Numbered from the stretch's first letter, positions 20,391 through 34,342 are shown. The stretch: DNA of 64,000 nt from an uncultured candidate division Zixibacteria bacterium (GCA_963735035.1 CAVTJJ010000004.1:288001-352000), one strand, 5' to 3'. Translations and numbers: made by a program. Notes: generated by a model from the sequence alone, not told the origin.

Positions 20391-21638
20391 CTACGCGCCG
20401 TACTTGTCGATGATCTCCTGCTTCGACTTGCCAAGGATGTCGTACTTCTTGCCGACCTTACGGAAAGCGTCGAGCGCTTTGTCGAGATGATGAATCTCGT
20501 GACCGGCGGAGATCTGCGTGCGGATACGCGCCTGGCCTTGCGGCACCACCGGGAAGAAGAAGCCGATCGCGTAGATGCCCTCGGCGAACAAATCGCGCGA
20601 GATATCCTGTGAGAGCTTGGCGTTGAACAACATCACCGGCACGATCGGGGTATCGCCCTCTTTCAGAACGAAGCCGGCCTCCTCGAGACCTTTCCGCCAA
20701 TAGGCGGTGTTCTTCTCGAGTTTGTCGCGTCGCTCGGTACTCTTGGACAGAATATCCAGCACCCGGATAACACCGGAAACCACTACCGGCGCAATAGTAT
20801 TCGAAAACAGGTATGGCCGCGCTCTCTGGCGGCACATCTCGACCAGTTCGCGGCGTCCTGACACGCAGCCGCCCGACGCTCCACCAAGCGCCTTGCCGAA
20901 AGTAGTCGTGATGACATCGATCTTGCCCACCACGCCGTATTTCTCGTGCGTGCCGCGGCCGGTCTTGCCGATGAATCCACTGGAGTGGGAATCGTCTACA
21001 AACAGCATGGCGTCGTACTTATCACACAGTTCCACCATCTTGTCCAACTGCGCCGTGTCGCCGTCCATCGAGAACACGCCGTCAGTGATAACCATGCGGA
21101 CTCTGCGTCCGGCGTGAAGCTGCAATTTCTCTTCGAGATGCTCCATGTTGGCATGTTTGAACGTATCCTGCTCGGCGCTGCACAACCGCATGCCGTCGAT
21201 AATCGACGCATGCACGAGCCGGTCGGCGATCATCATGTCGTCTTTGGTGAGAACGGCCTCGAAGATACCGGCGTTGGCGTCCATGCATGACGGGAACAGA
21301 ATTGTGTCTTCGGTGCCGAGGAAAGCGGTTACTTTGCGTTCCAACTCACGATGTATATCCTGCGTGCCGCAGATAAAGCGTACCGATGACATGCCGTAGC
21401 CACGGCTGTCGAGGCCTTCGTGCGCTGCTTTGAGTACCTCGGGATGGCTGGACATGCCGAGATAGTTGTTGGCGCACATGTTGATTACTTTCTTCGGCGC
21501 GGCGCCGGTCGGAAATTCGACTTCGATATCCGCCGCCTGCGACGAATGTATGTACCGTTCCTGTTTGAACAGGCCGGCGTCCTGAATCCCCTTAAGTTGA
21601 TCTTGATAAATTGTGCGAACCTTATCGCTGTAGCCCAT
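20391..21638 (-). CDS. kbl: 2-amino-3-ketobutyrate CoA ligase (glycine C-acetyltransferase)
   Basis: CANNYLG, MSSVRFICGTQ, DGVFSMDG, TFGKALGG PLP lysine, RQRARPYLFSN, ARIRTQ. Confidence 0.92.
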   Translation of the reverse strand: MGYSDKVRTIYQDQLKGIQDAGLFKQERYIHSSQAADIEVEFPTGAAPKKVINMCANNYLGMSSHPEVLKAAHEGLDSRGYGMSSVRFICGTQDIHRELERKVTAFLGTEDTILFPSCMDANAGIFEAVLTKDDMMIADRLVHASIIDGMRLCSAEQDTFKHANMEHLEEKLQLHAGRRVRMVITDGVFSMDGDTAQLDKMVELCDKYDAMLFVDDSHSSGFIGKTGRGTHEKYGVVGKIDVITTTFGKALGGASGGCVSGRRELVEMCRQRARPYLFSNTIAPVVVSGVIRVLDILSKSTERRDKLEKNTAYWRKGLEEAGFVLKEGDTPIVPVMLFNAKLSQDISRDLFAEGIYAIGFFFPVVPQGQARIRTQISAGHEIHHLDKALDAFRKVGKKYDILGKSKQEIIDKYGA

Positions 21639-21710
21639 ATTCGACTCCTAGGTTAGCTGCCACATCGCGAACCGGCCGAATCTTACCCGGCCGGTTAATC
21701 ACACCCGACG

Positions 21711-21956
21711 CTACTTGAGGAATTGCCGGACCAGCGCCACGATTTTGTTGACCGAATCAAATGCTTCGGGGGTGGCCTTCTCATCCGGAATGCTGATCTT
21801 GTACTTGTTCTCGAGGAACCGCTTCAGCGAAACCATGGAAAAAGAATCGACGATACCACCCGAGATCAGGGCCGTGTCGCAATCGATTTCTTCTTCTTCA
21901 TCCTCGAGATATTCGTTCTTTACATATTTCAGAACGGCTTGTTGCATTTCATCCAT
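21711..21956 (-). CDS. Acyl carrier protein
   Basis: 81 aa, acidic, GIVDSFSMV Ser motif. Confidence 0.9.
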   Translation of the reverse strand: MDEMQQAVLKYVKNEYLEDEEEEIDCDTALISGGIVDSFSMVSLKRFLENKYKISIPDEKATPEAFDSVNKIVALVRQFLK

Positions 21957-21982
21957 CGATACACCTGCTTCTATATTTGACG

Positions 21983-23686
21983 TTAATCATTTTCCAGTGT
22001 GGAAGTGTCGCCGATTTCCTCGCCCCATTCCTTGGCTCGCAACACTCGGCGCATGATCTTGCCGGAGCGGGTCTTGGGGAGCGACGGTACGTATTCAATC
22101 TCCTGCGGCATAGCCAGCGGGGAGAGTCTCTTGCGAATGAAGTTCATGATATCCAGTTCAAGATCGACACTCGCCTCAAAACCGGGCTTAAGTGTCACGA
22201 ACGCCTTCACCACTTCCATGTTGACTTCGTCCGGCTTGGCCACGACTGCCGATTCCGCCACTGACGGGTGTTCCAGCAGCGCCGATTCGACTTCGAACGG
22301 GCTGACCAGATGTCCGGCGGTGTTGATGATATCGTCATCGCGACCTGCGAACCAGAAGTAACCATCGGCGTCGATACTCGACCGGTCACCCGGCATGTAC
22401 CAGCCGTTCTTGAATTTAGCTTTGTAGGTAGCCTCGTTATTGCGATAGCCGCGCATCATCGCCGGCCATCCAGGTTGAAAGGCAATAAGGCCGATCCGCC
22501 CGGGATCAGTAATAGGTTCGTAGGTCTTGAGATCGAGCACGGTTGCCCCGATGCCGGGGAAGGCGCGCCCCATCGAACCCGGTTTCACTTTCATGCCGGG
22601 GAAATTCGTGATCATCATCGAGCCGGTCTCGGTCTGCCAATACGTATCATGGAACGGTAGGCCGAAGACACGCAGGGACCAATGCACCGCCTCGGCGTTG
22701 AGCGGCTCGCCCACACTGCATAGGTGGCGAAGTGATTTCATGTCGAACTTCTTGACGATCTCGTCACCGGCCTTCATCAAAGACCGGATTGCGGTCGGAG
22801 CCGAATACCAGACCGTCACACGATGCTTCTCAATGAATCGGTACCAGTTCTCCGCCGAGAATCCTACATCCTGCACGCATTGAGTGACGCCCATGGTGAA
22901 GGGTGCGATAATGCCGTACGATGTGCCCGTGACCCAGCCCGGATCGGCGGTGCACCAGTAGACGTCGTCGTCCTTCAGGTCAAGCACCCACTTCGCGGTC
23001 AGGAACTGTGATATGAGCGAGTAGTGTACGTGCTGTACGCCTTTCGGCTTACCGGTAGTGCCGGAGGTGTAGTGAATCACCGAGGGCGACTCGGCTTTGG
23101 TCGGATAGGCCGGGAAATTCTCAACCGGTTTGGCATCGGCGAGTGAGAAAGCAATCTCGCGATCTTTCAACTCTCTCTTGCCGTCGTGATCGACAATGAT
23201 GATGTGCTTGAGGAACGGCATTTGATCGAGAATGCGGCGCACTTTGCCGACATGCTTGCGCTGAGTCAATATGGCAGTTGCCTGAGCGTCTTCAAGGCGC
23301 ACGAAGAGCGAATCTTCACCGAAAGCCGAGAACAGCGGCTGTGCGACGGCGCCCATCTTCAGAATGCCGACAAAGCCCAGATACAGTTCCGGAATGCGGT
23401 CCATAAAAAGACAGACACGATCGCCCGGCTGGATGCCCAGATCGCGCAGATAGGCGGCGATAGTGTTGGTAGTGAGGCGAACATCGTTGTAAGTGTACCG
23501 CTTCTCTTCGGCGCCGGTACCTTCCCAGATAAGCGCCGGTTTGTCGGCTTTGCCCATCTGACAGACACGATCAGAGCAGTACCAGCCGATGTTGATGACA
23601 TCGCCCGCTTTGTAACCGAGTTCCTTTTCAGCGATATCCCAACTGAAATTGCGAGCCCGGTCTTCGTAGTTGCCAAAATTATTCAT
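21983..23686 (-). CDS. acsA: Acetate--CoA ligase-like enzyme (short AcsA type)
   Basis: YTSGTTGKPKG, WCTADPGWVTG, VGEPLN, DTYWQTETG, PKTRSGKIMRR. Confidence 0.88.
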   Translation of the reverse strand: MNNFGNYEDRARNFSWDIAEKELGYKAGDVINIGWYCSDRVCQMGKADKPALIWEGTGAEEKRYTYNDVRLTTNTIAAYLRDLGIQPGDRVCLFMDRIPELYLGFVGILKMGAVAQPLFSAFGEDSLFVRLEDAQATAILTQRKHVGKVRRILDQMPFLKHIIIVDHDGKRELKDREIAFSLADAKPVENFPAYPTKAESPSVIHYTSGTTGKPKGVQHVHYSLISQFLTAKWVLDLKDDDVYWCTADPGWVTGTSYGIIAPFTMGVTQCVQDVGFSAENWYRFIEKHRVTVWYSAPTAIRSLMKAGDEIVKKFDMKSLRHLCSVGEPLNAEAVHWSLRVFGLPFHDTYWQTETGSMMITNFPGMKVKPGSMGRAFPGIGATVLDLKTYEPITDPGRIGLIAFQPGWPAMMRGYRNNEATYKAKFKNGWYMPGDRSSIDADGYFWFAGRDDDIINTAGHLVSPFEVESALLEHPSVAESAVVAKPDEVNMEVVKAFVTLKPGFEASVDLELDIMNFIRKRLSPLAMPQEIEYVPSLPKTRSGKIMRRVLRAKEWGEEIGDTSTLEND

Positions 23687-23689
23687 CAG

Positions 23690-24070
23690 TTACTCTATTC
23701 CTTCAGGTTGCAGGGCAACCACGGCACAAGCGTATTGATCGGTGAATGACGACGAGACCAGATAACGGTCACTATCGACGCCACCTATCAGTTCGCTCAT
23801 TCGACCGCTCAGTCGAAGCCGGGTCGCACCTGAACGATTCATGACTTCTATATCTCTAAATCTGAGCCCTTCATGCAAACCAATTCCAGCCGCTTTTAGA
23901 AGAGCTTCCTTGACGGCCAGGATAGCGGCGAGGCGGGCATATCCTCGGCGCTTTGTCCGATACTCCGCCAGCTCACTATCGGTGAATATTCCCTCAAGGG
24001 TGCCGTCGGCGCGGTCAACCGCGCTTCTAATCCGGTCTACCGTGACTATGTCTATACCGAATGCTTGCAT
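23690..24070 (-). CDS. acpS: Holo-ACP synthase (AcpS-type phosphopantetheinyl transferase)
   Basis: GIDIVTVDRI, IFTDSE, AVKEALLKA motifs. Confidence 0.85.
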   Translation of the reverse strand: MQAFGIDIVTVDRIRSAVDRADGTLEGIFTDSELAEYRTKRRGYARLAAILAVKEALLKAAGIGLHEGLRFRDIEVMNRSGATRLRLSGRMSELIGGVDSDRYLVSSSFTDQYACAVVALQPEGIE

Positions 24071-24096
24071 GTCGTGGCGCTCCGTGATAACCGGCC

Positions 24097-25074
24097 TTAG
24101 CCGATCTTGCTCACCGTGGGCCCTACCCGGAGCTTGCGCGACAACACGTCGATCATGTCGCTGGTCATCCTGGCGAGATCGTACTCAGGTTTCCAGCCCC
24201 ACTCCTTGCGGGCGCAGCTATCATCCATTGAGTTCGGCCACGAATCAGCAATCGCCTGTCGCACCGGATCGACGTTGTAGTCGATCGTGAATTCTGGAAT
24301 ATGCTTGCGGATTTCATCGGCGAGAATCTTTGGGGTGAAGCTCATTGCTGTAACGTTGAACGAATTCCGATGTATCAGCTTCGTGCCATCAGCCTCCATC
24401 AGGTCGATCATGGCGCGAATGGCATCAGGCATGTACATCATATCGAGCCAGGTGTCGGGTCTGAGATAGCAGGTGTATTTCTTACTCTTGATAGCCTGAT
24501 AGAAGATGTCCACAGCGTAATCGGTGGTGCCGCCACCCGGTTCGGTTTCATACGAGATCAATCCGGGGAAGCGAACGCCCCGGGTATCGAGTCCGAACCG
24601 TTTGTGGTAATAGTCACACAGTAGTTCGCCGGCCACTTTGGTGACGCCGTAGATTGTGTCGGGCCGCTGTATTGTATCCTGAGGGGTCTTGTCCTGTGGA
24701 GTCGACTTTCCAAACGCGCCTATTGAGCTAGGAAAGAACAGCGAACACTTATGCTGCTGTGCCGCTTCGAGAAAATTGAACAGGCCGTTCATGTTGACCT
24801 GCCAGGCGGTGCCGGGGCGGGACTCGCCGGTGGCGGACAGGATCGCTCCCAGATGATAGATCGTATCGATATCATGAACCTGCATCACACGGGAGATATG
24901 ATGCGGCAGGGTGACGTCCAGAAATTCAAACGGGCCGGCATCGCGCAGCCGTACGTCGGTGGGCATGCGGATGTCGGTCGCGACTACTTTGTCATCACCA
25001 TATTTCTGTCTGAGTGCGGCGGTCAGTTCGGATCCGATCTGACCGAGAGCGCCGGTAACCAGAATCTGCTTCAT
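24097..25074 (-). CDS. tdh: SDR-type L-threonine 3-dehydrogenase
   Basis: TGALGQIG, LSATGE, PSSIGAFG, YGVTK, PGGGTTDYAV, LDMMYMPDA; start reassigned to ATG 25074. Confidence 0.88.
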   Translation of the reverse strand: MKQILVTGALGQIGSELTAALRQKYGDDKVVATDIRMPTDVRLRDAGPFEFLDVTLPHHISRVMQVHDIDTIYHLGAILSATGESRPGTAWQVNMNGLFNFLEAAQQHKCSLFFPSSIGAFGKSTPQDKTPQDTIQRPDTIYGVTKVAGELLCDYYHKRFGLDTRGVRFPGLISYETEPGGGTTDYAVDIFYQAIKSKKYTCYLRPDTWLDMMYMPDAIRAMIDLMEADGTKLIHRNSFNVTAMSFTPKILADEIRKHIPEFTIDYNVDPVRQAIADSWPNSMDDSCARKEWGWKPEYDLARMTSDMIDVLSRKLRVGPTVSKIG

Positions 25075-25256
25075 CTCAAAGGACCTCAATAGCTTACTGT
25101 TGCGGGCGCGAATCTGAAATATTTCGCCGCCCAAGCCGTCCACGTTGCCGGCCAGCTCGCTGGAAAATAAGGAACGGGCAGGAAAAATCAAGCGAATCCG
25201 CGCTATCAGACGCGATTCCGCACCAACATCTGTCTATGGGGAAGATCCGCTTAATA

Positions 25257-25407: not shown

Positions 25408-26073
25408 TTAGTCCGGTGGTCGTATGGTAGCGATAGCGGCCAACAACTGTTCTTTGTTGGCGATAGATATCTTGCGTCCTCTGATTGGTAGATCAGGCAG
25501 ATCTCTGGCGTAGCGCCTTAGTTTGACCACTGGCATCGCTGCAAGCTGTTCCCACGTTGGCTGTTCGGAAGAGATCTCTGAAGTGTGGGCAGGAATGCGG
25601 ACGGGTGGAGTGGCGATTCGAATTGGCGCCTCTACTATCGCGGGTTCTTTGTGACTAACGGGAGCCGGTGCTTTTGGTTTGGTAGGCTTTCTGGCAGGCT
25701 TGGTTGGCGATGCGACACGAACCGCGGCGGCCTTCTCGGGAGCCGGCTTCTTGAGAATCGGGGCGGAAGACTCGTCGGGACTGTAGCGGTCGACAAAACG
25801 CGGATAAGGCATGATCGCACTGACTTCGTCGTCGGATTTTGGGATCACGTGCATCGACACCAGTTCGCCGGCGACATAGGCAGCGCGTGCTCCAGCTTCA
25901 ACTGCTCCCTGGACCGCCGACCATTCACCCTCAATCTTGACCGTCATGCGGCCGGACGCTCCCTGCTCCGCCGAGACAATCACTACCTCACCCAAATCCG
26001 ATGCGGCGCGGGTCGCCTTGATGGCGCCTTCAATGCCGCTTGTTTCTACTAGTCCTAACGCTGGTCGTGGCAT
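25408..26073 (-). CDS. Bacterial microcompartment shell (BMC-H) protein with Pro/Ala/Lys linker and C-terminal helical extension
   Basis: ALGLVET.G, VKIEGEWSAVQGAVEAG, ELVSMHVIP; C-terminal MPVVKLRRYAR..ISIANKEQLL; start reassigned to ATG 26073. Confidence 0.85.
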   Translation of the reverse strand: MPRPALGLVETSGIEGAIKATRAASDLGEVVIVSAEQGASGRMTVKIEGEWSAVQGAVEAGARAAYVAGELVSMHVIPKSDDEVSAIMPYPRFVDRYSPDESSAPILKKPAPEKAAAVRVASPTKPARKPTKPKAPAPVSHKEPAIVEAPIRIATPPVRIPAHTSEISSEQPTWEQLAAMPVVKLRRYARDLPDLPIRGRKISIANKEQLLAAIATIRPPD

Positions 26074-26139
26074 GATCCTGAACCTACAAAATGCCGTGCT
26101 CCGATTCAACCAATAAAGTGATCGACAACTTGTGGAACA

Positions 26140-26242
26140 TAAATGAGCGTCGCCCGTGCATCCCCTCGAGCACGGGCGACTGGGCACCAAGAAAAAGAGG
26201 ACCTACCGAGCGCCTTGTCAGCGCCAGGAGTAAGAATGACGC
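26140..26242 (-). ncRNA. Candidate sigma54-dependent sRNA (~100 nt), or structured leader of the BMC gene
   Basis: Starts at the predicted +1 of the sigma54 promoter; CU-rich stretches; 11-bp GC hairpin 26149-26159/26170-26180. Confidence 0.45.
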
Positions 26243-26252
26243 AACGGTATTT

Positions 26253-26268
26253 AGCAAGGGCTGTGCCA
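26253..26268 (-). promoter_or_regulatory. Sigma54 (-24/-12) promoter
   Basis: TGGCAC-AGCCC-TTGCT on the minus strand, exact consensus spacing. Confidence 0.85.
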
Positions 26269-26487: not shown

Positions 26488-28761
26488 CTAGTTGGGCATG
26501 CCGCCCTCCGCGCTGATCCCGTACCGTTTCAGCTTGGTTCTCACGGTCGCTTCATGGACGCCGAGGATGCGAGCCGCCTCGCTCTTGTTACCGCCGGCCG
26601 CCAGAAGCGCTTCGGTAATCAACTGCCGCTCGAATTGTTCGACACGTTCAAACAGGCCACCGGCATTGTCGGCCGCGTGGTCGGGAGCCAGAATCGACCG
26701 GGCTACTTCGTGCCACTGACCTTCAGCCACCGACTGTGACATTATTGAAAGCCGATTGACGACATTGTCTAGCTCGCGAACGTTGCCGGGCCAATCATGA
26801 CCAACGAACTGCTGCACCAATTCCGGCGCCGGTTTCTGTCCCGGCTTGAGCAGCCCACGATGAATCATGAAGTGCTCCAGCAGCAGAGGGATGTCTTCCT
26901 TGCGCGAGCGCAGTGACGGAAGATGCAGGGTGATCCCGCTCAGTCGGTAGTAGAGGTCCCGACGGAACGTGCCCTGTTCCACCATCGCTTCGAGATCGCG
27001 GTTGGTGGCCGCCACCACGATGATATCAATCTCGACCTGCTTGGTGCTTCCCAGCGGTGTTACGCGCCGTGATTCCAGTACGCCGAGCAGTTTCGCCTGG
27101 AGCGACAACGGCATTTCGCCGATCTCGTCGAACAAGAAAACGCCGCCGTTAGCCGATTCGAGCAGACCTTTCTTATTGTGGTCCGCTCCGGTGAAGGCGC
27201 CTCTGTGGTAACCGAACAGTTCCGATTCGAGCAGCGTCTCGGGCACCGAGGCGCAGTTGATCGCCACGTACGGTCCACTGGGTCGAACCTGCGAGTGATA
27301 GTACCTCGCCAGGTGATCCTTGCCGACACCCGTCTCGCCCGTAATAAGCACCGGCAAATCGGAGCGATTCAAGAGCGGCAGTTGCTTCTTGATTCGCTCG
27401 ATAATCGGAGACTGAGTGAGATATTCATGCTCGCCGGGGGTCGGAGAGGATTCGTGCGTCTGCTGTGTGACCTTAGCCAGACGGCCGATTTCGTTGGCCA
27501 GCCGGCTGACCTCGTCCTGTTTCGACTTGATCCGACACCGGGAGTAGAATTCTTCGGCCCTGAACAGATAAGTCAGGCGTTGTTGGTCGGAGAACGCTTC
27601 GGAGGCTCCGGCCGCAATCAACGCTTCGGCCTTGGCCCATCGAACACCCGATTCGGCCAGAATGTCGATAGCCTTCTGGAACAACTGACGGGCTTCAACC
27701 GCCTGTCGTTCACTCACCGGACGGGCTTCACCCATAGCCACCTGAGCCATGATCTTCTTGAGCGCGCCGAGTTCGAGTTTCTCGTCGGAGCGTTCCATGA
27801 TAACCGTGGCTCGCGCCGCCATCTTCTGAGCTTGACGATAGTCGCCGGTGCGCACGGCCAGTTCGGCCAGATGACGCATTACCCGGCCGGACAGCGAGGT
27901 GCCTGAACCAAGAAGTTCCGCTTTCTCGAAAGCGCGTCTCAGGGTCAGGGCCGACTGCGCGAAGTCGGCAATGCGATAGTTCAGCTCACCCAGATAAGTC
28001 AGGTAACTGACTTCATCACGCGGCGAGTTGACCACCGTGAGCAAAACGCCGGCCTGGTTGAATTCCGCCTCGGCCTTGTCATACTCTGCCTGCTGCAGGT
28101 AGACGTATCCGAGAGATAGATGGGCGCGAAGCGTATTGAGATCGTCACCCAGTTCACCGGACATCTGGATATTGATCCGGAGATGTTTCTCCGCTTCAAT
28201 GAAATCACCCATGAACATATATATGCGGCCGATGTTGCCCATCATGAAAGCCAGCTTGCGCGGGTTATCGAGCCGTCGGGCGATTTCGACCGCATCCATC
28301 AGCACCGCCAGAGCGTTACGGTAGTCGGTCTGTCGGAGATACAGTCCGGCCAGACGATTCAGTGCCCGGCTCTGACCTTCGGGACAATCATATCTTCTGA
28401 AAATCGATTCCGCGTCGCGGTACGCCTTCTGTGCTTCAACAAGTTCACCCCTGTCTCGCAGGATACCTCCCAGGGTAACGAAGACCTCGGCCAGCATCAA
28501 CGAGTCGCCGGCGCGGGTAACGATAGCCTGGGCAGTCCGTGCCACCTTCAAGGCAGCTGTCAGATTGGTGAGGGAAGCATAAGCCCGAGCCGCCAGATGC
28601 AGGATTTCTCCTACTTCGGCTGCTCCGGCTTCAGTGTCTATCTGGCTCTGTTGAGCCTCATAGCACTGCACGGCGCCGACAAAGTCTTGCCTGGCCAGCA
28701 TCGCCCGCATGTGGGCGGCCGCCGAAACGCAGAACGTCTTGTCTACGTCGTGTTGGCTCAT
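26488..28761 (-). CDS. Sigma54-dependent enhancer-binding protein with N-terminal TPR array and Fis-type HTH
   Basis: About 430 aa of TPR-like helices, GETGVGKD, ESELFG..GAFTGA, FDEIGE, FRRDLYYRL, WPGNVREL, GNKSEAARILG. Confidence 0.95.
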   Translation of the reverse strand: MSQHDVDKTFCVSAAAHMRAMLARQDFVGAVQCYEAQQSQIDTEAGAAEVGEILHLAARAYASLTNLTAALKVARTAQAIVTRAGDSLMLAEVFVTLGGILRDRGELVEAQKAYRDAESIFRRYDCPEGQSRALNRLAGLYLRQTDYRNALAVLMDAVEIARRLDNPRKLAFMMGNIGRIYMFMGDFIEAEKHLRINIQMSGELGDDLNTLRAHLSLGYVYLQQAEYDKAEAEFNQAGVLLTVVNSPRDEVSYLTYLGELNYRIADFAQSALTLRRAFEKAELLGSGTSLSGRVMRHLAELAVRTGDYRQAQKMAARATVIMERSDEKLELGALKKIMAQVAMGEARPVSERQAVEARQLFQKAIDILAESGVRWAKAEALIAAGASEAFSDQQRLTYLFRAEEFYSRCRIKSKQDEVSRLANEIGRLAKVTQQTHESSPTPGEHEYLTQSPIIERIKKQLPLLNRSDLPVLITGETGVGKDHLARYYHSQVRPSGPYVAINCASVPETLLESELFGYHRGAFTGADHNKKGLLESANGGVFLFDEIGEMPLSLQAKLLGVLESRRVTPLGSTKQVEIDIIVVAATNRDLEAMVEQGTFRRDLYYRLSGITLHLPSLRSRKEDIPLLLEHFMIHRGLLKPGQKPAPELVQQFVGHDWPGNVRELDNVVNRLSIMSQSVAEGQWHEVARSILAPDHAADNAGGLFERVEQFERQLITEALLAAGGNKSEAARILGVHEATVRTKLKRYGISAEGGMPN

Positions 28762-29123
28762 TACTTCTCCCTTCTAAGAGGCAGGAAATGCTTCCGGCTC
28801 GAGATAACCGCGGATGAACTCTTGTCCGCCACGTCGGTATTTGACAAAGTCGCCGATTGAGGTGTGCGCGCCGGACTGATCAAAGTGGCGATAAGCACAT
28901 CAATTATTGGGATTCCGGTCAGAACCGTGACTCTGAAAGTCTTGGTGCCGCCGCCGCCGATGACTTCGTCATCGCCCCAGGGATGATCGCCATCCACGAC
29001 CGTACCGCCGCCGGTGCCGGGTTGGTCTAAGCCCTCGCCCCGCATGATGCCTGCATTGAGAGGCATAGCTGAGGCGACTACTAGTACCAGTATCAGGACC
29101 AGTACCGAGTAAACGTGTTTCAT
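28761..29123 (-). CDS. Small secreted protein with DHPWGDDE motif (candidate signalling-peptide precursor)
   Basis: AAGGAG RBS, Sec signal peptide, Gly-flanked DHPWGDDE, TAATG overlap with the EBP start. Confidence 0.75.
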   Translation of the reverse strand: MKHVYSVLVLILVLVVASAMPLNAGIMRGEGLDQPGTGGGTVVDGDHPWGDDEVIGGGGTKTFRVTVLTGIPIIDVLIATLISPARTPQSATLSNTDVADKSSSAVISSRKHFLPLRREK

Positions 29124-29425: not shown

Positions 29426-30367
29426 CTAAGAATGAATCAGAACCAATTGTACACAATCCGGTTCATCTTTGGGGTCACAATAGTGAAACTCGACCCTTAC
29501 AAATGCGCCGACAGGCCGGTTGTCCTTGATCTTGGGGCTAAACACCCAACTAGGTAAGACTGCCGTAAGGTTCTTCGCAAAACCGTACTCTCGTGGCTCT
29601 TCCTTGATGACAAGGTACTGGCAAGTATTGACTACCTCGTTTGAGTCGACAAAGAACCGCAACCGGGCGCTCTTACCATCCTTCATGACAAAGTCGAGGA
29701 AGAATCCGGACGAGTCACTCAGAGGCTGTGATACCGCGGCATATGGCCTCATGGCGCCCGTCGAATCGACGTACATAAGTACTTCGACGAATCCTCCCCG
29801 GTTATTCTCCAAGGCCATAAAGGGAATTTTCGGCGGAGTCTTGGCAATGACCTCGATTTCCCGATTCACCACCCTCCTGGGCAAGGCGTCGACATCATCA
29901 GGCAAGAAGTCCGCAGTCTCGGGAGAGAACTCGCCAGACTCGGTATCGATATCGATTTGCGAATAGGACAAGTTCGTATCCACATTGATTCGGGCTTGTA
30001 AGTGAGGAATTACCTTTGACGGTTTCACTTTCGCCAGCATCGGAACATCGGGAATGATCGTGTACCCCCTGAATCCCGCGAAACCCTTATGCTGTTTCTC
30101 ATACGGATTAAGTCCGTTTGACTGACGGGCTGCTGTGAAAGCGCCATCGTCTGGCACAGCTACTTGGACAGTCAGGTCAGGTTGCGCACTCTTAGACACA
30201 ACCTCGTCGCGGAGTTGTAGCGGCCCAAGATACTTGATACCTACTGCAACCACGAGCGCAAGCCCGGTTACTATCCCCAGCGCCATAAGCATGTTCCGCT
30301 GGTATTTCTCCTTCAGTTCGAACCCAATGGCAGAAAACGAATTGTTCTGCAAGTCAAGTGTCTCCAA
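29426..30367 (-). CDS. TonB-like membrane-anchored protein
   Basis: GFELKEKYQRN plus TM helix; PPKIPFMALEN..GFVEVLMYVD..G; WVFSPKIKDNRPV resemble a TonB C-domain with an insertion. Confidence 0.65.
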   Translation of the reverse strand: METLDLQNNSFSAIGFELKEKYQRNMLMALGIVTGLALVVAVGIKYLGPLQLRDEVVSKSAQPDLTVQVAVPDDGAFTAARQSNGLNPYEKQHKGFAGFRGYTIIPDVPMLAKVKPSKVIPHLQARINVDTNLSYSQIDIDTESGEFSPETADFLPDDVDALPRRVVNREIEVIAKTPPKIPFMALENNRGGFVEVLMYVDSTGAMRPYAAVSQPLSDSSGFFLDFVMKDGKSARLRFFVDSNEVVNTCQYLVIKEEPREYGFAKNLTAVLPSWVFSPKIKDNRPVGAFVRVEFHYCDPKDEPDCVQLVLIHS

Positions 30368-30443: not shown

Positions 30444-30644
30444 CTACCACCATTCGTTGACGGTAATAGTCAAGAACTCTTGCATATCTACTGCTGCACA
30501 CCGTGTTCCCCACCAGGCGCAGTCAAACGCGGTGATGCATGTCCTGTAACGATCACAGGCCACCTGGAACGCACCTGCCGACGCCGGGATCATCGCGAGC
30601 ACGAACGCCAGCACCAGCGTCATCGCAACAATTTTTTTCAGCAC
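30444..30644 (-). CDS. Small secreted peptide with four Cys and WW motifs
   Basis: AAAGGAG RBS, signal peptide ending ASA/AGA, C-x5-C-x5-C-x6-C, hairpin downstream near 30385-30415. Confidence 0.7.
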   Translation of the reverse strand: MLKKIVAMTLVLAFVLAMIPASAGAFQVACDRYRTCITAFDCAWWGTRCAAVDMQEFLTITVNEWW

Positions 30645-30755: not shown

Positions 30756-31316
30756 CTATCCGATCCTGGGCATGTTCTTGCTGAGGTACGCGTACCAACT
30801 TACAATCTCATCCCGCAAGACTGTCACTTGAAAATCCGTTGGATTGATAACGAACCGAACCAAATGAAAATTGCCAGATTGCTCACAACCACACTCCAGG
30901 CGCGCATCAAGGAAGATAAGCACCAGGGCCGAATCAAGGGGCAGCGCGGAGTCGGATATTTGTAGATCAGGGCGAAGGGCCAGCATTTCGAATCCGGCCG
31001 GAGCATTATTTGACTTCCTGAGCCCGATTGCCATCAAGGAATCACTCACTCGCCTAATACAATTATTGATTTGAAGGGCGAAAACCTCATTGTAGCTGAC
31101 CTGTGAATACTGAGGCATGGCCGGCGATAGCGCTACTGGGTTCACAGTCGTATGCGCCGAAAGATACTCGGCTTCAAACGCCCGATAGTACCTCGGACCC
31201 GCATCTATCAGGCCTATCATGAGCAAGAGGCCCACTGTAACAAAGAGTTTCCCCCCAAACCCTGATCGCCAAAATGACAACAGGTCCCGCAAAAAACGAC
31301 GGGCAATTGAGAACAT
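30756..31316 (-). CDS. Hypothetical membrane-anchored protein
   Basis: GGAGG RBS, one N-terminal TM helix. Confidence 0.6.
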   Translation of the reverse strand: MFSIARRFLRDLLSFWRSGFGGKLFVTVGLLLMIGLIDAGPRYYRAFEAEYLSAHTTVNPVALSPAMPQYSQVSYNEVFALQINNCIRRVSDSLMAIGLRKSNNAPAGFEMLALRPDLQISDSALPLDSALVLIFLDARLECGCEQSGNFHLVRFVINPTDFQVTVLRDEIVSWYAYLSKNMPRIG

Positions 31317-31318
31317 GG

Positions 31319-32191
31319 TTACCTCCCTTTCATTCCAATTTGCTCACTGGCTGCCCGTTCTAGTTCTTCGATCTGCTTTCTGGCGGCCCACTGGGATACC
31401 ACCGTCATCTGGGACTGATCGACTACCTCAAGACAAACGAGCAAACCCGACTCAGTCACATTGAGCACTCTCTTTCGGCCAATGTTGGTTCGCTGAACGC
31501 CCGGAGTGGGCAGACACGGGTAAAATCCTTCGTCGAGAACTATTTGCCTGACAGTCGAACCGAACTGCTCAGCGGTCTGCTCGACCAGACTCCTGGCGCA
31601 CTCCTTGTCACGATTCATCAATTGTATCGTAACGAGATTGGTTGGTAATTCTTTCGGTGACTCCACCTGAAGAAGACTCGAGGTGTCAACGTAGACAAAC
31701 GTCCCGGAATCCAAGTTGATCCGGAACACAGCGGTATCTTCACCGAGAATGACGCGTAAAGGGAATGGCTTAGTGGGAAACCAAATTCGCGCTTCGTGAG
31801 CAACTCTGCTACGAGACCGCAGCCTTAGAATCACTAGTGTGTCCGACTCGCTATGCTCGAAGCCCATCATAGAATAGTGACTCAGTATGTCGAAAGTCCA
31901 CTTTCCGGTGTAACCCATACCTTCATCTTGCGGTTCGCAATCCTGATAGAACAAGAATGCAAAAGGCCTGATATTCCTCGGCGGCTTTCTGGATGGGTTA
32001 GGTTCAGGGCCCACTGGGGGTGGTTCTTGTTTGTCCACATCCCAACCGCCCTGAGCTTGAGTGAACGGCGCCAACATGGATAGTGCCAAGACAGCCATAG
32101 CGGCTGTTCGGATAAGTGTGTTTGTATTCGGCGCGACGCGCCTGCGAATTCCGCCCATATCTGCCCTGCTTTCAAGAGTGTGTACCTCCAC
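31319..32191 (-). CDS. Hypothetical exported protein (true start may be downstream)
   Basis: 290-aa ORF with a signal-like segment ending TQA followed by a Pro-rich stretch. Confidence 0.6.
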   Translation of the reverse strand: MEVHTLESRADMGGIRRRVAPNTNTLIRTAAMAVLALSMLAPFTQAQGGWDVDKQEPPPVGPEPNPSRKPPRNIRPFAFLFYQDCEPQDEGMGYTGKWTFDILSHYSMMGFEHSESDTLVILRLRSRSRVAHEARIWFPTKPFPLRVILGEDTAVFRINLDSGTFVYVDTSSLLQVESPKELPTNLVTIQLMNRDKECARSLVEQTAEQFGSTVRQIVLDEGFYPCLPTPGVQRTNIGRKRVLNVTESGLLVCLEVVDQSQMTVVSQWAARKQIEELERAASEQIGMKGR

Positions 32192-32224
32192 CAGCGTGGC
32201 TGGTGGAGGCGAAACGAGGAGCGA

Positions 32225-32302
32225 CTATTCGTCGCCGCCCCACGGGTGATCGAGCAGGAAGAGGCCGATAACGACCCCAAACTTGAGCATCCAGTAGAGC
32301 AT
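32225..32302 (-). CDS. 25-aa peptide MLYWMLKFGVVIGLFLLDHPWGGDE
   Basis: GGAGG RBS at 32307-32311, hydrophobic N-region, C-terminal motif shared with 28761-29123. Confidence 0.6.
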   Translation of the reverse strand: MLYWMLKFGVVIGLFLLDHPWGGDE

Positions 32303-32581
32303 GAATCCTCCATGCGGTGAAGGGTTGCGGTTGCCCCGTCGCAATTTGTGAGGGATTGCGCGGGTGTGCTTGCAACATAAGAGTATGCACCTCTCGTATG
32401 CAGGCTCCCTCGGCTCCGCACAGTGCGACAATTCCACACAGGAAACGAACCGATGTTCGGTTCTGTCACCCGATCCCTAGCGAGAAGAGCCCACTCCGTC
32501 TATACCAACTTATTAAATCAAACCCCGGCGCCTTTCAAGAGAAACCTACCTCCTGGCGCCATCATTGTTGATTCCGTTCTA

Positions 32582-32611
32582 ACACTATGCGGGGGGGGGG
32601 GATTTTGTCAA
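32582..32611 (-). promoter_or_regulatory. Sigma70 promoter with a C11 homopolymer in the spacer
   Basis: TTGACA-N16-CATAGT or -N18-TAGTGT; G11 tract at 32591-32601 on the plus strand. Confidence 0.5.
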
Positions 32612-32659
32612 GCACTTTTTTGCAAAATCATAATGTTTTGTGGTCAGACTCACAGCATA

Positions 32660-32749
32660 GAGCTTGAGATTGCCGCGCTTCGCTGTCCCGCCTGACGGCG
32701 GGCCATCTCCGCTCGCAATGACGATTAGACAAGCTTCTTCAACATGCCC
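32660..32749 (-). repeat. Half copy of the RPE/MITE element
   Basis: gagattgccgcg...ctcgcaatgacgattagac...cttcttcaacatgccc. Confidence 0.8.
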
Positions 32750-32804
32750 AAGCGGTAGGGCACACAGAGGGCTTCCTTCACTAATCCCCCCGATACCCGC
32801 CGCT

Positions 32805-33431
32805 CTACTGCAAACTCACCGGCAGGCGACTGTATATCTCATCCAGGAATGATTTTTCGAAACGATCAAGCGCCTCAAGACCTTCAGGCGTGTCTTTGGC
32901 GACAAAGCGGATAAACGTCAGATGTCGCGGACTGAGCGTCAGCGACGTCAGCATCTCAAACAGCTTGAGCTGATAATCATTCGACGTCTCGCCCCACGGA
33001 GTAACGTACCAGAAGTCCATCACGTGTCCGGTCTGCTTGTATCTCAAGTGCAGGCGTTTGATGTTCAGCGTGCGGTTGTGAAAAGCGATCGTGTGCGGTT
33101 CCGAACCTTCGACAATCCAACCCGATGCCGGCAGGCAATTCAACGGTGAGTGAGGGCCACCGCGCGGATCGGAGAAACTTCCGAGAAAGAGATTGACCCG
33201 GTTGCCGTCGAGATCGATAAAATTCGTGTTGATGATATGGTCCGGCTTGAGCAGGTCGATCACCCCCGGCGCGACTACTTCCGTCTGTCCGGTCCAGCCG
33301 TCGCGGGACATCGGAAAACCGTCCCACCCGGCAGACTTGAGTGCGGTCGGGGTGCGATACTTGATCACCCATCCGACCAGCGACGCCACTATTAGAATGG
33401 TCGCGATTATGAAGAACGTTTTCCGGGCCAT
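32805..33431 (-). CDS. epsI: EpsI family (exosortase-associated) protein
   Basis: FPMSRDGWTG, PHSPLNCLPASGW, TFIRF; follows exosortase. Confidence 0.85.
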   Translation of the reverse strand: MARKTFFIIATILIVASLVGWVIKYRTPTALKSAGWDGFPMSRDGWTGQTEVVAPGVIDLLKPDHIINTNFIDLDGNRVNLFLGSFSDPRGGPHSPLNCLPASGWIVEGSEPHTIAFHNRTLNIKRLHLRYKQTGHVMDFWYVTPWGETSNDYQLKLFEMLTSLTLSPRHLTFIRFVAKDTPEGLEALDRFEKSFLDEIYSRLPVSLQ

Positions 33432-34342
33432 TTCAGAATCGCTCCCAGGATCATCATCATTATAAGGGCCGAAATAAACACCAGCAGGCCGGATACTTCG
33501 TGCAGGAACGTATCCGCCAGGTCTCTGCTAACAGTATAGGCACCGATGGCCGTCACCAGAATTCGGAACACGTTCGCGGCGATGGCTATCGGGATCATGG
33601 CCAGGGTCAAGAGAATCGCCCGAACTTTTCCGGGCATATAGAGCCAGGAATAGAGCGACCCGAGGGCCAGAAGGGTCACGAGACTTCTAAGTCCGCTGCA
33701 GGCTTCAACTACCTCGAGCGAGTAGCCGGGAAGGTGGATGATATTTCCCTGGCGGATAGCCGGCATTCCAAGTAACTGCAGCAAGGAAGTGGTTGCTTCG
33801 GTGGACAGGAACTGCATCGGCAGAGTCGCCTGGTAGTAGATCACCGCCGGCACCGGCACCATGAACAGCAGGAAGAAGAAGGCGAACCAGATTTTGCGGA
33901 AATTTGTTTTGCCCAGATAGGCCAGTCCGATTCCGGTGATTTGAAGCAGGAGCGACATCCGGGTGATGAAGAACTCCGAGGCGGCCATACCCAGGACCAG
34001 GCCGACACTTCCCACAATGACCATGGCAACACCGAAGCGGCTGCTCTCGGCCGGAAAGACGAGCTCCTTGTGGCGGCGATAGGCGATCCAGATAGCAATA
34101 GGCACGACCAGAAAGCCGTGCGAATAATTGCCGTCCTGAAGCCAGTCCTGGATCAGGTCGTACCAGACATGAAAATTGAGCAGTGACGTGAGCGCGATCA
34201 GGGCGTACGGGTACTTGTGCCGGACTATATGATTTTTTATGGCGCTCCAGTTCTGGGTCATCGGCAATAGTACACCTGTCTTTGGTCTATACGCTCTGGT
34301 TATCGCCATCTTTGGGCCTCGGGGCAAGGTTTTATTTATCAA
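33407..34342 (-). CDS. xrt: Exosortase (EpsH family); start may be at a downstream Met
   Basis: NYSHGFLV, VVEACSGLRS (catalytic Cys), NVFRI (Arg), FLHE (His). Confidence 0.92.
   Translation of the reverse strand: MINKTLPRGPKMAITRAYRPKTGVLLPMTQNWSAIKNHIVRHKYPYALIALTSLLNFHVWYDLIQDWLQDGNYSHGFLVVPIAIWIAYRRHKELVFPAESSRFGVAMVIVGSVGLVLGMAASEFFITRMSLLLQITGIGLAYLGKTNFRKIWFAFFFLLFMVPVPAVIYYQATLPMQFLSTEATTSLLQLLGMPAIRQGNIIHLPGYSLEVVEACSGLRSLVTLLALGSLYSWLYMPGKVRAILLTLAMIPIAIAANVFRILVTAIGAYTVSRDLADTFLHEVSGLLVFISALIMMMILGAILKWPGKRSS

Follow-up and report, generated by a model that had tools for sequence, protein, structure and literature searches.

Does a 25-codon open reading frame (ORF) whose last residues repeat a motif of a nearby secreted protein represent a gene, and how might its product act? 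The question arises from a 64,000-nt stretch of DNA (hereafter, the window) from an uncultured candidate division Zixibacteria bacterium (GCA_963735035.1, CAVTJJ010000004.1:288001-352000), which corresponds to positions 288001-352000 of contig C4 of the genome designated G000. On the minus strand of the window, the mini-ORF uORF-A1 (32225-32302; MLYWMLKFGVVIGLFLLDHPWGGDE) extends over 25 codons from an ATG (32302-32300) to a TAG stop (32227-32225), and a Shine-Dalgarno-like GGAGG (32307-32311), the putative ribosome binding site (RBS), is followed by ATTC, that is, by 4 nt to the ATG. An initial annotation had delimited 32225..32311 as a GGAGG RBS and a 25-aa ORF ending in the motif; the minus strand reads in this way, and the range is that of RBS plus ORF because GGAGG, ATTC, ATG, 25 codons, and TAG are read there. 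Judging from sequence comparisons, the mini-ORF is most likely a real, translated small gene of a phylum-wide class of polypeptides carrying [D/E]-H-P-W-[G/D]. It is probably part of a peptide-based control circuit that has not been described, the mechanism of which we infer below.

The mini-ORF shares its terminal motif with a small secreted protein

The last eight residues of the mini-ORF, DHPWGGDE, correspond to DHPWGDDE inside E1 (28761-29123, minus strand), a 120-aa small secreted protein of the HPWG family in which the motif context is GDHPWGDDE. The motif codons are GAT CAC CCG TGG GGC GGC GAC GAA in the mini-ORF and GAT CAT CCC TGG GGC GAT GAC GAA in E1 (reverse complement of 28965-28988). 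Twenty of the 24 bases are identical, and the differences amount to two synonymous substitutions and a Gly/Asp replacement, in agreement with the initial annotation. Its accompanying claim, that the flanks lack similarity, was borne out: the longest DNA match between the leader and the E1 gene was 17 nt, the longest protein match was the 8-mer, and similarity was confined to the motif. The mini-ORF is not a copy of E1 because this flanking similarity is absent, and an origin as a decayed duplicate of the 120-aa gene, which the annotation had named as a refutation, was ruled out.

The motif of the mini-ORF matches the E1-family consensus DHPWGG[DE] and is closer to it than the GD version of the neighboring E1; the core, [D/E/x]-H-P-W-[G/D] followed by acidic residues, is present. 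It is preceded by a hydrophobic stretch of approximately 16 residues with one Lys before it. Downstream, the first long gene is gene A (31319-32158, minus strand), which encodes a secreted protein with a signal-peptide-like N-terminus. The mini-ORF is in frame with gene A, and the gap between them consists of the stop and 22 codons (66 nt). Thus positioned before gene A, and not directly before a gene for an activator with a tetratricopeptide repeat (TPR) domain and a sigma-54 interaction domain (EBP1 is encoded 3.5 kb further downstream, within the cluster on this strand), the mini-ORF fits a subclass of leader ORFs, that is, short ORFs with an RBS upstream of a secreted-protein gene, and not the E1 or E2 types described below.

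The match between the mini-ORF and E1 is more than chance. In the six-frame translation of G000 (7,229,890 residues), DHPWG occurred 5 times vs. 0.66 times expected from composition; the 120 permutations of its letters averaged 0.51 occurrences, with a next highest count of 3. Three of the five sites were the mini-ORF, its paralogous copy, and the E1 gene. Among 108 same-family genomes, a degenerate DNA pattern for HPWGG[DE] gave 75 matches, and the reversed control gave 4. The sequence GGAGG was found at positions -14 to -4 before 0.56% of ATG triplets in G000 (563/100,111), and about 8% of its ORFs of at least 250 aa (194/2,435) had a candidate start with a preceding GGAGG. Searching all six frames of G000 with loosened criteria for other forms of the motif yielded no convincing extra member.

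HPW proteins are paired with TPR/sigma-54 activators

The E1 family was collected from the 108 family genomes using E1 searches and the degenerate motif DNA pattern. It sits in Candidatus Zixiibacteriota, a phylum of the FCB group. Its members are 105-136 aa long and have a signal peptide, the motif approximately 20-30 residues later, a hydrophobic segment with TGxxxxD, and a variable tail. Across 50 aligned members, which averaged 20% identity per column, the sole invariant columns were M1 and the H, P, W, and G of the motif.

The gene next after E1 encoded a TPR/sigma-54 activator in 25 of 26 loci of 3 kb, and in the 26th locus the activator was in two pieces. In the window, this activator is EBP1 (26488-28761, minus strand; 757 aa), the start of which overlaps the E1 stop. 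It comprises a TPR domain (residues 1-~437), a sigma-54 AAA+ domain, and HTH_8, with matches to TPR_12, TPR_MalT, Sigma54_activat, AAA_lid_14, and HTH_8. The model of the TPR domain had a predicted local distance difference test score >90 over residues 1-437. Its nearest solved folds were the TPR superhelices of LGN/Pins with groove-bound peptides (E = 2e-10; template modeling score, 0.68-0.80), followed by Tom71 with Hsp70/Hsp90 tails and by MalT domain III. The modeled fold is therefore of the peptide-groove type. A complex prediction for the EBP1 TPR domain (1-430) and E1 (26-95), supplied as alignments and with controls unrun, scored 0.00 against a mark of 0.32 and counts neither way.

A perfect sigma-54 promoter (TGGCACAGCCCTTGCT; 26253-26268, minus strand) lies between EBP1 and a gene for a BMC-domain protein (25408-26190). 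G000 has just one other perfect sigma-54 match, at C6:80973, and no sigma-54 promoter was found at the A leader, Y (described below), or E1 of this genome. As in the window, EBP1 was followed by a sigma-54-type promoter (0-2 mismatches) and then by a BMC-domain gene in all eight further genomes. A four-part module was thus observed in 8/8 other genomes: an HPWG protein, a TPR/sigma-54 activator, a sigma-54 promoter, and a BMC protein with a conserved C-terminal ...GRQISMANKxQLLEAI.

A second pair was found elsewhere in G000 (C4:1141173-1144505). It consists of E2 (C4:1141173-1141466), a small secreted protein with EHPWDSD directly after the signal peptide, and, downstream, EBP2, a TPR/sigma-54 activator of 979 aa. 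The E2-type motif reads EHPWD[SA]D. EBP2 matches were present in 108/108 family genomes and, in a phylum-wide sample of 201 genomes, in 176; E2 preceded EBP2 in all 30 family loci examined. Sixteen EBP2 loci were taken from ten further families, and all 16 had a small secreted protein upstream that carried the motif (exact HPW in 13) or a variant of it (DPW or HTW in 3).

Motif mini-ORFs recur in the leaders of gene Y

Outside G000, 12 of 73 motif-pattern matches were not E1 genes. Seven of these 12 were short ORFs located 25-60 nt upstream of Y, a conserved secreted protein of approximately 640 aa encoded divergently from the large secreted protein X. One was a double-motif 75-aa protein of genome G120, and four were in other contexts, including one inside an unrelated 273-aa protein. 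Y was present in 54/108 family genomes. Among 30 Y loci, 17 had a short upstream ORF bearing the core [ED]HPW[GD] or a near variant; three of the 17 were fused in frame to Y, and one had an ATGA stop/start overlap. At the remaining 13 loci, a motif ORF was not found with the pattern used, and the Y start may have been misplaced in some. The Y-leader ORFs stopped 4-45 nt before the next start. At the X-Y locus of G000, a 14-codon ORF (C3:~126425-126469, L133) ends in ...TEHPWGDD-stop, 12 nt before Y (C3:126470-128338), which encodes a secreted protein of 622 aa.

Codon usage varied among the 15 Y-leader ORFs with exact HPW: His was encoded by CAC in 9 and CAT in 6, Pro by all four codons, and Gly by three codons. 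Within the genus of the window, conservation of the Y leader was limited to the promoter and the stretch T-E-H-P-W-G-[DE]-D-stop, in which third codon positions had changed. The promoter reads TGAAAC-N17-CGTAC, which we take to resemble the consensus of extracytoplasmic function (ECF) sigma factors, and similar sites were seen by eye before Y in other genera. As far as these sequences go, the motif of the Y-leader mini-ORFs is conserved at the amino-acid level across genera. The peptide-level conservation proposed in the initial annotation was supported in this way, by the invariant HPWG in the 50-sequence alignment and the synonymous codons in Y leaders; the support comes from other genomes and not from the pair in the window. 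Its placement of the mini-ORF at the head of a cassette also agreed with our results: the mini-ORF heads the A operon, and motif mini-ORFs recur in other genera.

The position of the motif was free. It began as early as residue 3 and ended 1-13 residues before the stop, and the Y-leader mini-ORFs had no hydrophobic segment at all.

A putative trans-acting peptide

Our tentative preference, to which we would give somewhat less than an even chance, is that the motif peptide is translated and works in trans, as an additional ligand or a mimic within the circuit of HPW proteins and TPR activators. The product would be an uncleaved hydrophobic peptide with the family-consensus DHPWGGDE at its C-terminus. 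It would serve as a ligand, mimic, or competitor for the recognizer of HPW, most plausibly the TPR domain of EBP1, and expression of the A operon would thereby be coupled to the E1/EBP1 circuit. The likely target of that circuit would be the sigma-54 promoter before the BMC-domain gene. The TPR domain is the best candidate partner because genes for HPW proteins and TPR activators are paired phylum-wide, because TPR superhelices bind extended peptides, because of the EBP1 model, and because the motif position is free. Likewise, the variable position (residue 3, 1-13 residues before the stop, and the Y fusions) favors a recognition motif over a site of termination-coupled arrest. Suggestive, too, is that the motif variants of Y leaders matched those of secreted proteins from the same genome (Asn for His in uORF-Y and E2 of G020; WGDD in uORF-Y and E1 of G000; EHPWDS in uORF-Y and E2 of G080), a tracking read by eye in few genomes and without statistics.

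Recognition of the HPW motif would take place in the cytoplasm, prior to export. If so, it would resolve the puzzle of secreted E1 and E2 proteins and soluble activators, and all motif placements are compatible with it, from Y-leader ORFs and fusions to the N-terminus of Y to the positions directly after the signal peptide in E2 and mid-protein in E1.

The initial annotation had proposed instead a processed signal of about 8 residues with the layout of SHP, ComS, and Phr precursors. Such an exported pheromone, sensed outside or after re-import as in SHP, ComS/XIP, and Phr systems, seems to us very unlikely. In its favor, the layout of a hydrophobic stretch and then a motif at the free C-terminus resembles that of short hydrophobic peptide precursors and of E2, and a gene for a TPR-type regulator lies within the same cluster. 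By contrast, the Y mini-ORFs entirely lack a hydrophobic segment. The stretch in uORF-A1 has only approximately 16 residues after its single Lys and, by our reading, lacks small residues at positions -1 and -3 relative to the motif. Genes for an exporter, an Eep-type protease, or Opp were not seen adjoining the locus, where no search aimed at them was made. The FCB-group phylum is presumably diderm, and import-type peptide signaling is not established there. Of the annotated layout, the leader followed by a C-terminal motif has a counterpart in E2, in which the motif comes after the signal peptide, but the F-L-L before the motif is, by our reading, unlike a signal-peptidase site. Export, cleavage, and a mature peptide of about 8 aa found no support; other mini-ORFs have up to 13 residues after the motif or are fused in frame. 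Membership in the SHP/ComS/Phr group likewise found no support, the associated regulator being a sigma-54 AAA+ activator in Zixibacteria. What survived is the suggestion of a variant or mimic: the motif is a peptide-level signature tied to a regulator, and such a role is the best guess, whereas the picture of a secreted pheromone was unsupported.

A broader extension of the trans-acting peptide is more doubtful. It supposes an undescribed peptide code of Zixibacteria in which HPW is read by the TPR domains of activators and is presented as secreted partners (E1 and E2), as N-terminal extensions, and as free mini-peptides, the leader mini-ORFs being intracellular mimics of the secreted signal. 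Under such a code, leader mini-ORFs would let secreted-protein operons driven by ECF-type or sigma-70 promoters talk to the sigma-54 regulon.

The mini-ORF lies in a duplicated promoter-and-leader block

The window region 31320-32623 has a paralogous copy at C4:878397-879715. Within it, a promoter-and-leader block (32115-32623, minus strand) reaches the first ~14 codons of gene A and is approximately 92% identical to C4:878397-878886. The order of the block is promoter, about 275 nt of upstream leader, mini-ORF, hairpin, and first ~14 codons of A. The leader block is 92% identical over 493 nt between the copies; the coding parts have diverged, and the A proteins are 63% identical. A sigma-70-like promoter, TTGACA-16-CATAGT (32584-32611, minus strand), marks the upstream edge of the block common to both loci. 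The hairpin has an 11-bp stem, CCTCCACCAGC-CAC-GCTGGTGGAGG (32185-32209, minus strand), begins 15 nt past the mini-ORF stop, and has no U-tract; in the paralogous leader it is retained via one G-U change and one mismatch at the loop end. The second copy of the mini-ORF (C4:~878716-878793) is intact, with the same start, frame, and stop, and ends in ...DHPWGGDY.

Two further features were observed at the upstream edge. A run of 11 C (32590-32600, minus strand) lies between the -35 and -10 hexamers, and the run of the paralog is interrupted and 2 nt shorter; a homopolymer at such a place could render expression phase-variable. The sequence that borders the leader block on its upstream side (32660-32768) contains a repeat of ~60-110 nt, with approximately 50 copies of 80-95% identity on five of six contigs, which looks like a repetitive extragenic palindromic element or a miniature inverted-repeat transposable element.

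Several observations weigh against a translated, trans-acting peptide. The two mini-ORF copies differ at 3 of 78 bases, with one synonymous change and a change of the last codon from E to Y, which falls at the very end of the motif. Because the copies are approximately 92% identical across the block, selection on the peptide is not separable from selection on the leader or from gene conversion. The leader was not found by DNA in 60 relatives, the lone match being a chance stretch of 31 nt in a DUF72-like gene of genome G004. No motif ORF was present upstream of 11 A homologs from other genomes, the same genus included, or upstream of a third paralog in G000. Searches of metagenome contigs with the degenerate patterns GLFLLDHPWGGD and DHPWGGD[DE]-stop gave no matches for either, and the mini-ORF was never called as a gene among the 15 billion proteins of the collection. 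The exact mini-ORF is species-specific within the relatives searched, with two copies, both in G000. The conservation in relatives raised by the initial annotation thus holds for the motif class, which recurs, and fails for this exact ORF; the 25-codon frame belongs to a wider, undescribed class and is itself duplicated and specific to this species. A cis-acting leader peptide would be expected to lie where the mini-ORF does, in a 5′ leader and close to the next gene. Both E1 and E2 have signal peptides and the activators have no membrane segment, so that direct contact between E proteins and TPR domains requires recognition before export or re-import.

Could the open frame be incidental, with the ~500-nt block being conserved as DNA or RNA, for instance as a regulatory 5′ untranslated region, a small RNA, or a recently converted cassette? 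The mini-ORF is conserved no better than the identity of the block requires, its absence from all relatives searched and from gene calls fits a frame that is not translated, and antisense and overlapping frames are open in both copies too, because the DNA is so similar. Accidental occurrence of an 8-residue consensus match with its rare core, a full GGAGG, and a terminal stop is nevertheless improbable, and analogous mini-ORFs are conserved at the amino-acid level in other genera. Rfam 15 gave no match at E up to 5 for window 31800-32900, and covariation was absent as well. We regard an untranslated block as quite unlikely.

Control in cis, in which translation of the mini-ORF or of a Y-leader ORF governs the downstream gene through motif-dependent pausing or arrest or through coupling of termination and reinitiation, is the main rival of the trans-acting peptide, though still unlikely in our estimation. 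The ORFs are found in 5′ leaders and stop shortly before the next start (4-45 nt for the Y leaders, once with the ATGA overlap; 66 nt, and in frame, for uORF-A1). Conservation is C-terminal only, in the genus of the window the stop follows directly after the motif, and the motif contains Trp, Pro, Gly, and Asp, which are prominent in known arrest peptides. The leader is also far better conserved than the coding part and folds somewhat better than shuffled sequences (z = -2.4; 1 of 100 shuffles as good). Against cis control, secreted proteins outside leaders have this motif as their invariant core, its distance to the stop in the leader ORFs varies from 1 to 13 residues, and in-frame fusions in three genomes have no stop. 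Nor did folding favor it. When the stretch under a stalled ribosome was constrained to be unpaired, the unpaired probability of the A initiation region hardly changed (0.29 to 0.32; other copy, 0.39 to 0.38). The predicted folds of the two leader copies differ, and none of the 135 pairs in their consensus fold was compensatory. No RNA switch exposing the RBS of A or terminating transcription was found, a weak result given the simple folding model, and the hairpin lacks a U-tract.

Genes surrounding the mini-ORF

Beyond gene A, the same-strand cluster includes gene B (30756-31316, minus strand), gene C (30444-30644, minus strand), and gene D (29426-30367, minus strand). Gene C encodes a 66-aa secreted peptide, the signal peptide of which precedes a mature part that is rich in Cys and Trp and ends in ...NEWW; no family match was found for it in Pfam or NCBIfam. 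None of E1, A, B, D, X, and Y reached a curated Pfam or NCBIfam cut-off; for E2, the comparison covered Pfam only. Homologs of A were present in 13/108 family genomes and homologs of D in 29/108. When the collected A and D loci were all translated in six frames, G120 was the only other genome with the motif in the A-D cluster. There (G120:C182, L099/L016), the 75-aa secreted protein with the double motif (DHPWGGDE and DHSWGGDQ) and a hydrophobic C-terminus is encoded between the A and D homologs.

An exosortase gene (33407-34342) and an EpsI gene (32805-33431) lie just upstream of the mini-ORF leader. Past the BMC-domain gene, the minus strand at 20391-25191 encodes an NAD-dependent epimerase, a phosphopantetheinyl transferase, an acetate-CoA-ligase-like enzyme, and an enzyme of the glycine C-acetyltransferase/BioF family; these genes may be part of the sigma-54-driven unit.

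Implications and comparison with known systems

Which ligands enhancer-binding proteins recognize has long been a gap in knowledge. If the mini-ORF product acts as proposed, a leader peptide serving in trans as the ligand of such a protein would constitute a regulatory link of a new kind, and the results would supply a direct, testable hypothesis on the ligands of the large TPR sensor domains in these sigma-54 activators. They would also point to a conserved, phylum-wide signaling pair, a small secreted HPW protein and a TPR/sigma-54 activator, in a candidate phylum without genetics. An unannotated class of mini-genes of 12-25 codons would bear on the regulatory content of small ORFs that standard gene calling misses. 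Even under cis control, the motif would be a new arrest or leader-peptide motif. In full-text literature, HPWGG, DHPWGG, DHPWG, and EHPWG had no biological occurrence (one match was an unrelated string), an arrest motif of HPW sequence was not found, and no paper was found that treats Zixibacteria together with sigma-54.

Secretion-coupled regulators such as FlgM/sigma-28, the ExsE cascade, and IpgC/MxiE offer one comparison. As in those systems, a protein with an export signal could inform a cytoplasmic TPR regulator before it is exported, and non-exported peptides would then be constitutive mimics. Unlike them, the mini-ORF locus is linked to no dedicated secretion apparatus, and the analogy is purely conceptual. 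A second comparison is with PrsK/PrsR/PrsT, the regulatory set of the PEP-CTERM/exosortase system reportedly described by Haft et al. in 2006. Both combine a sigma-54-dependent activator and a TPR protein in an exosortase/exopolysaccharide neighborhood. In contrast to PrsR/PrsT, EBP1 unites TPR and activator in one protein and has no receiver domain (257.6 bits against the PEP_resp_reg model; cut-off, 502.6), it is paired with a small HPWG protein, and a PEP-CTERM signal plays no part.

The mini-ORF was also compared with regulatory leader and arrest peptides (TnaC, SecM, MifM, ErmCL, and SpeFL). It shares with these a very short ORF with an RBS in a 5′ leader, C-terminal conservation that includes Trp, Asp, and Pro, and a nearby next start. 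It differs from arrest peptides in that the HPW motif is common to independent secreted proteins, the spacing to the stop is variable, in-frame fusions occur, and no stalling-dependent RNA switch was found. The resemblance is one of position only.

The closest comparison is with the RRNPP systems, which include Rap/Phr, NprR/NprX, PlcR/PapR, Rgg/SHP, ComR/ComS, and AimR/AimP of phages. In both cases, the gene for a small secreted pro-peptide lies beside the gene for a cytoplasmic TPR-type regulator, and only a short peptide motif is conserved; the mini-ORF is in addition similar in size to SHP and ComS precursors and, like them, places a hydrophobic stretch before its C-terminal part. The differences concern output, lineage, and motif placement. 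The output domain of EBP1 and EBP2 is a sigma-54 AAA+ domain with HTH_8, and not an N-terminal HTH domain or a Rap phosphatase; the HPW system occurs in Zixibacteria instead of in Firmicutes or phages of these; and the motif of the E proteins is internal or at the mature N-terminus and is found also in leader ORFs that are not secreted. Thus, by analogy, the HPW system would work most like the peptide/TPR-regulator pairs of the RRNPP group, yet it is not a member of that group.

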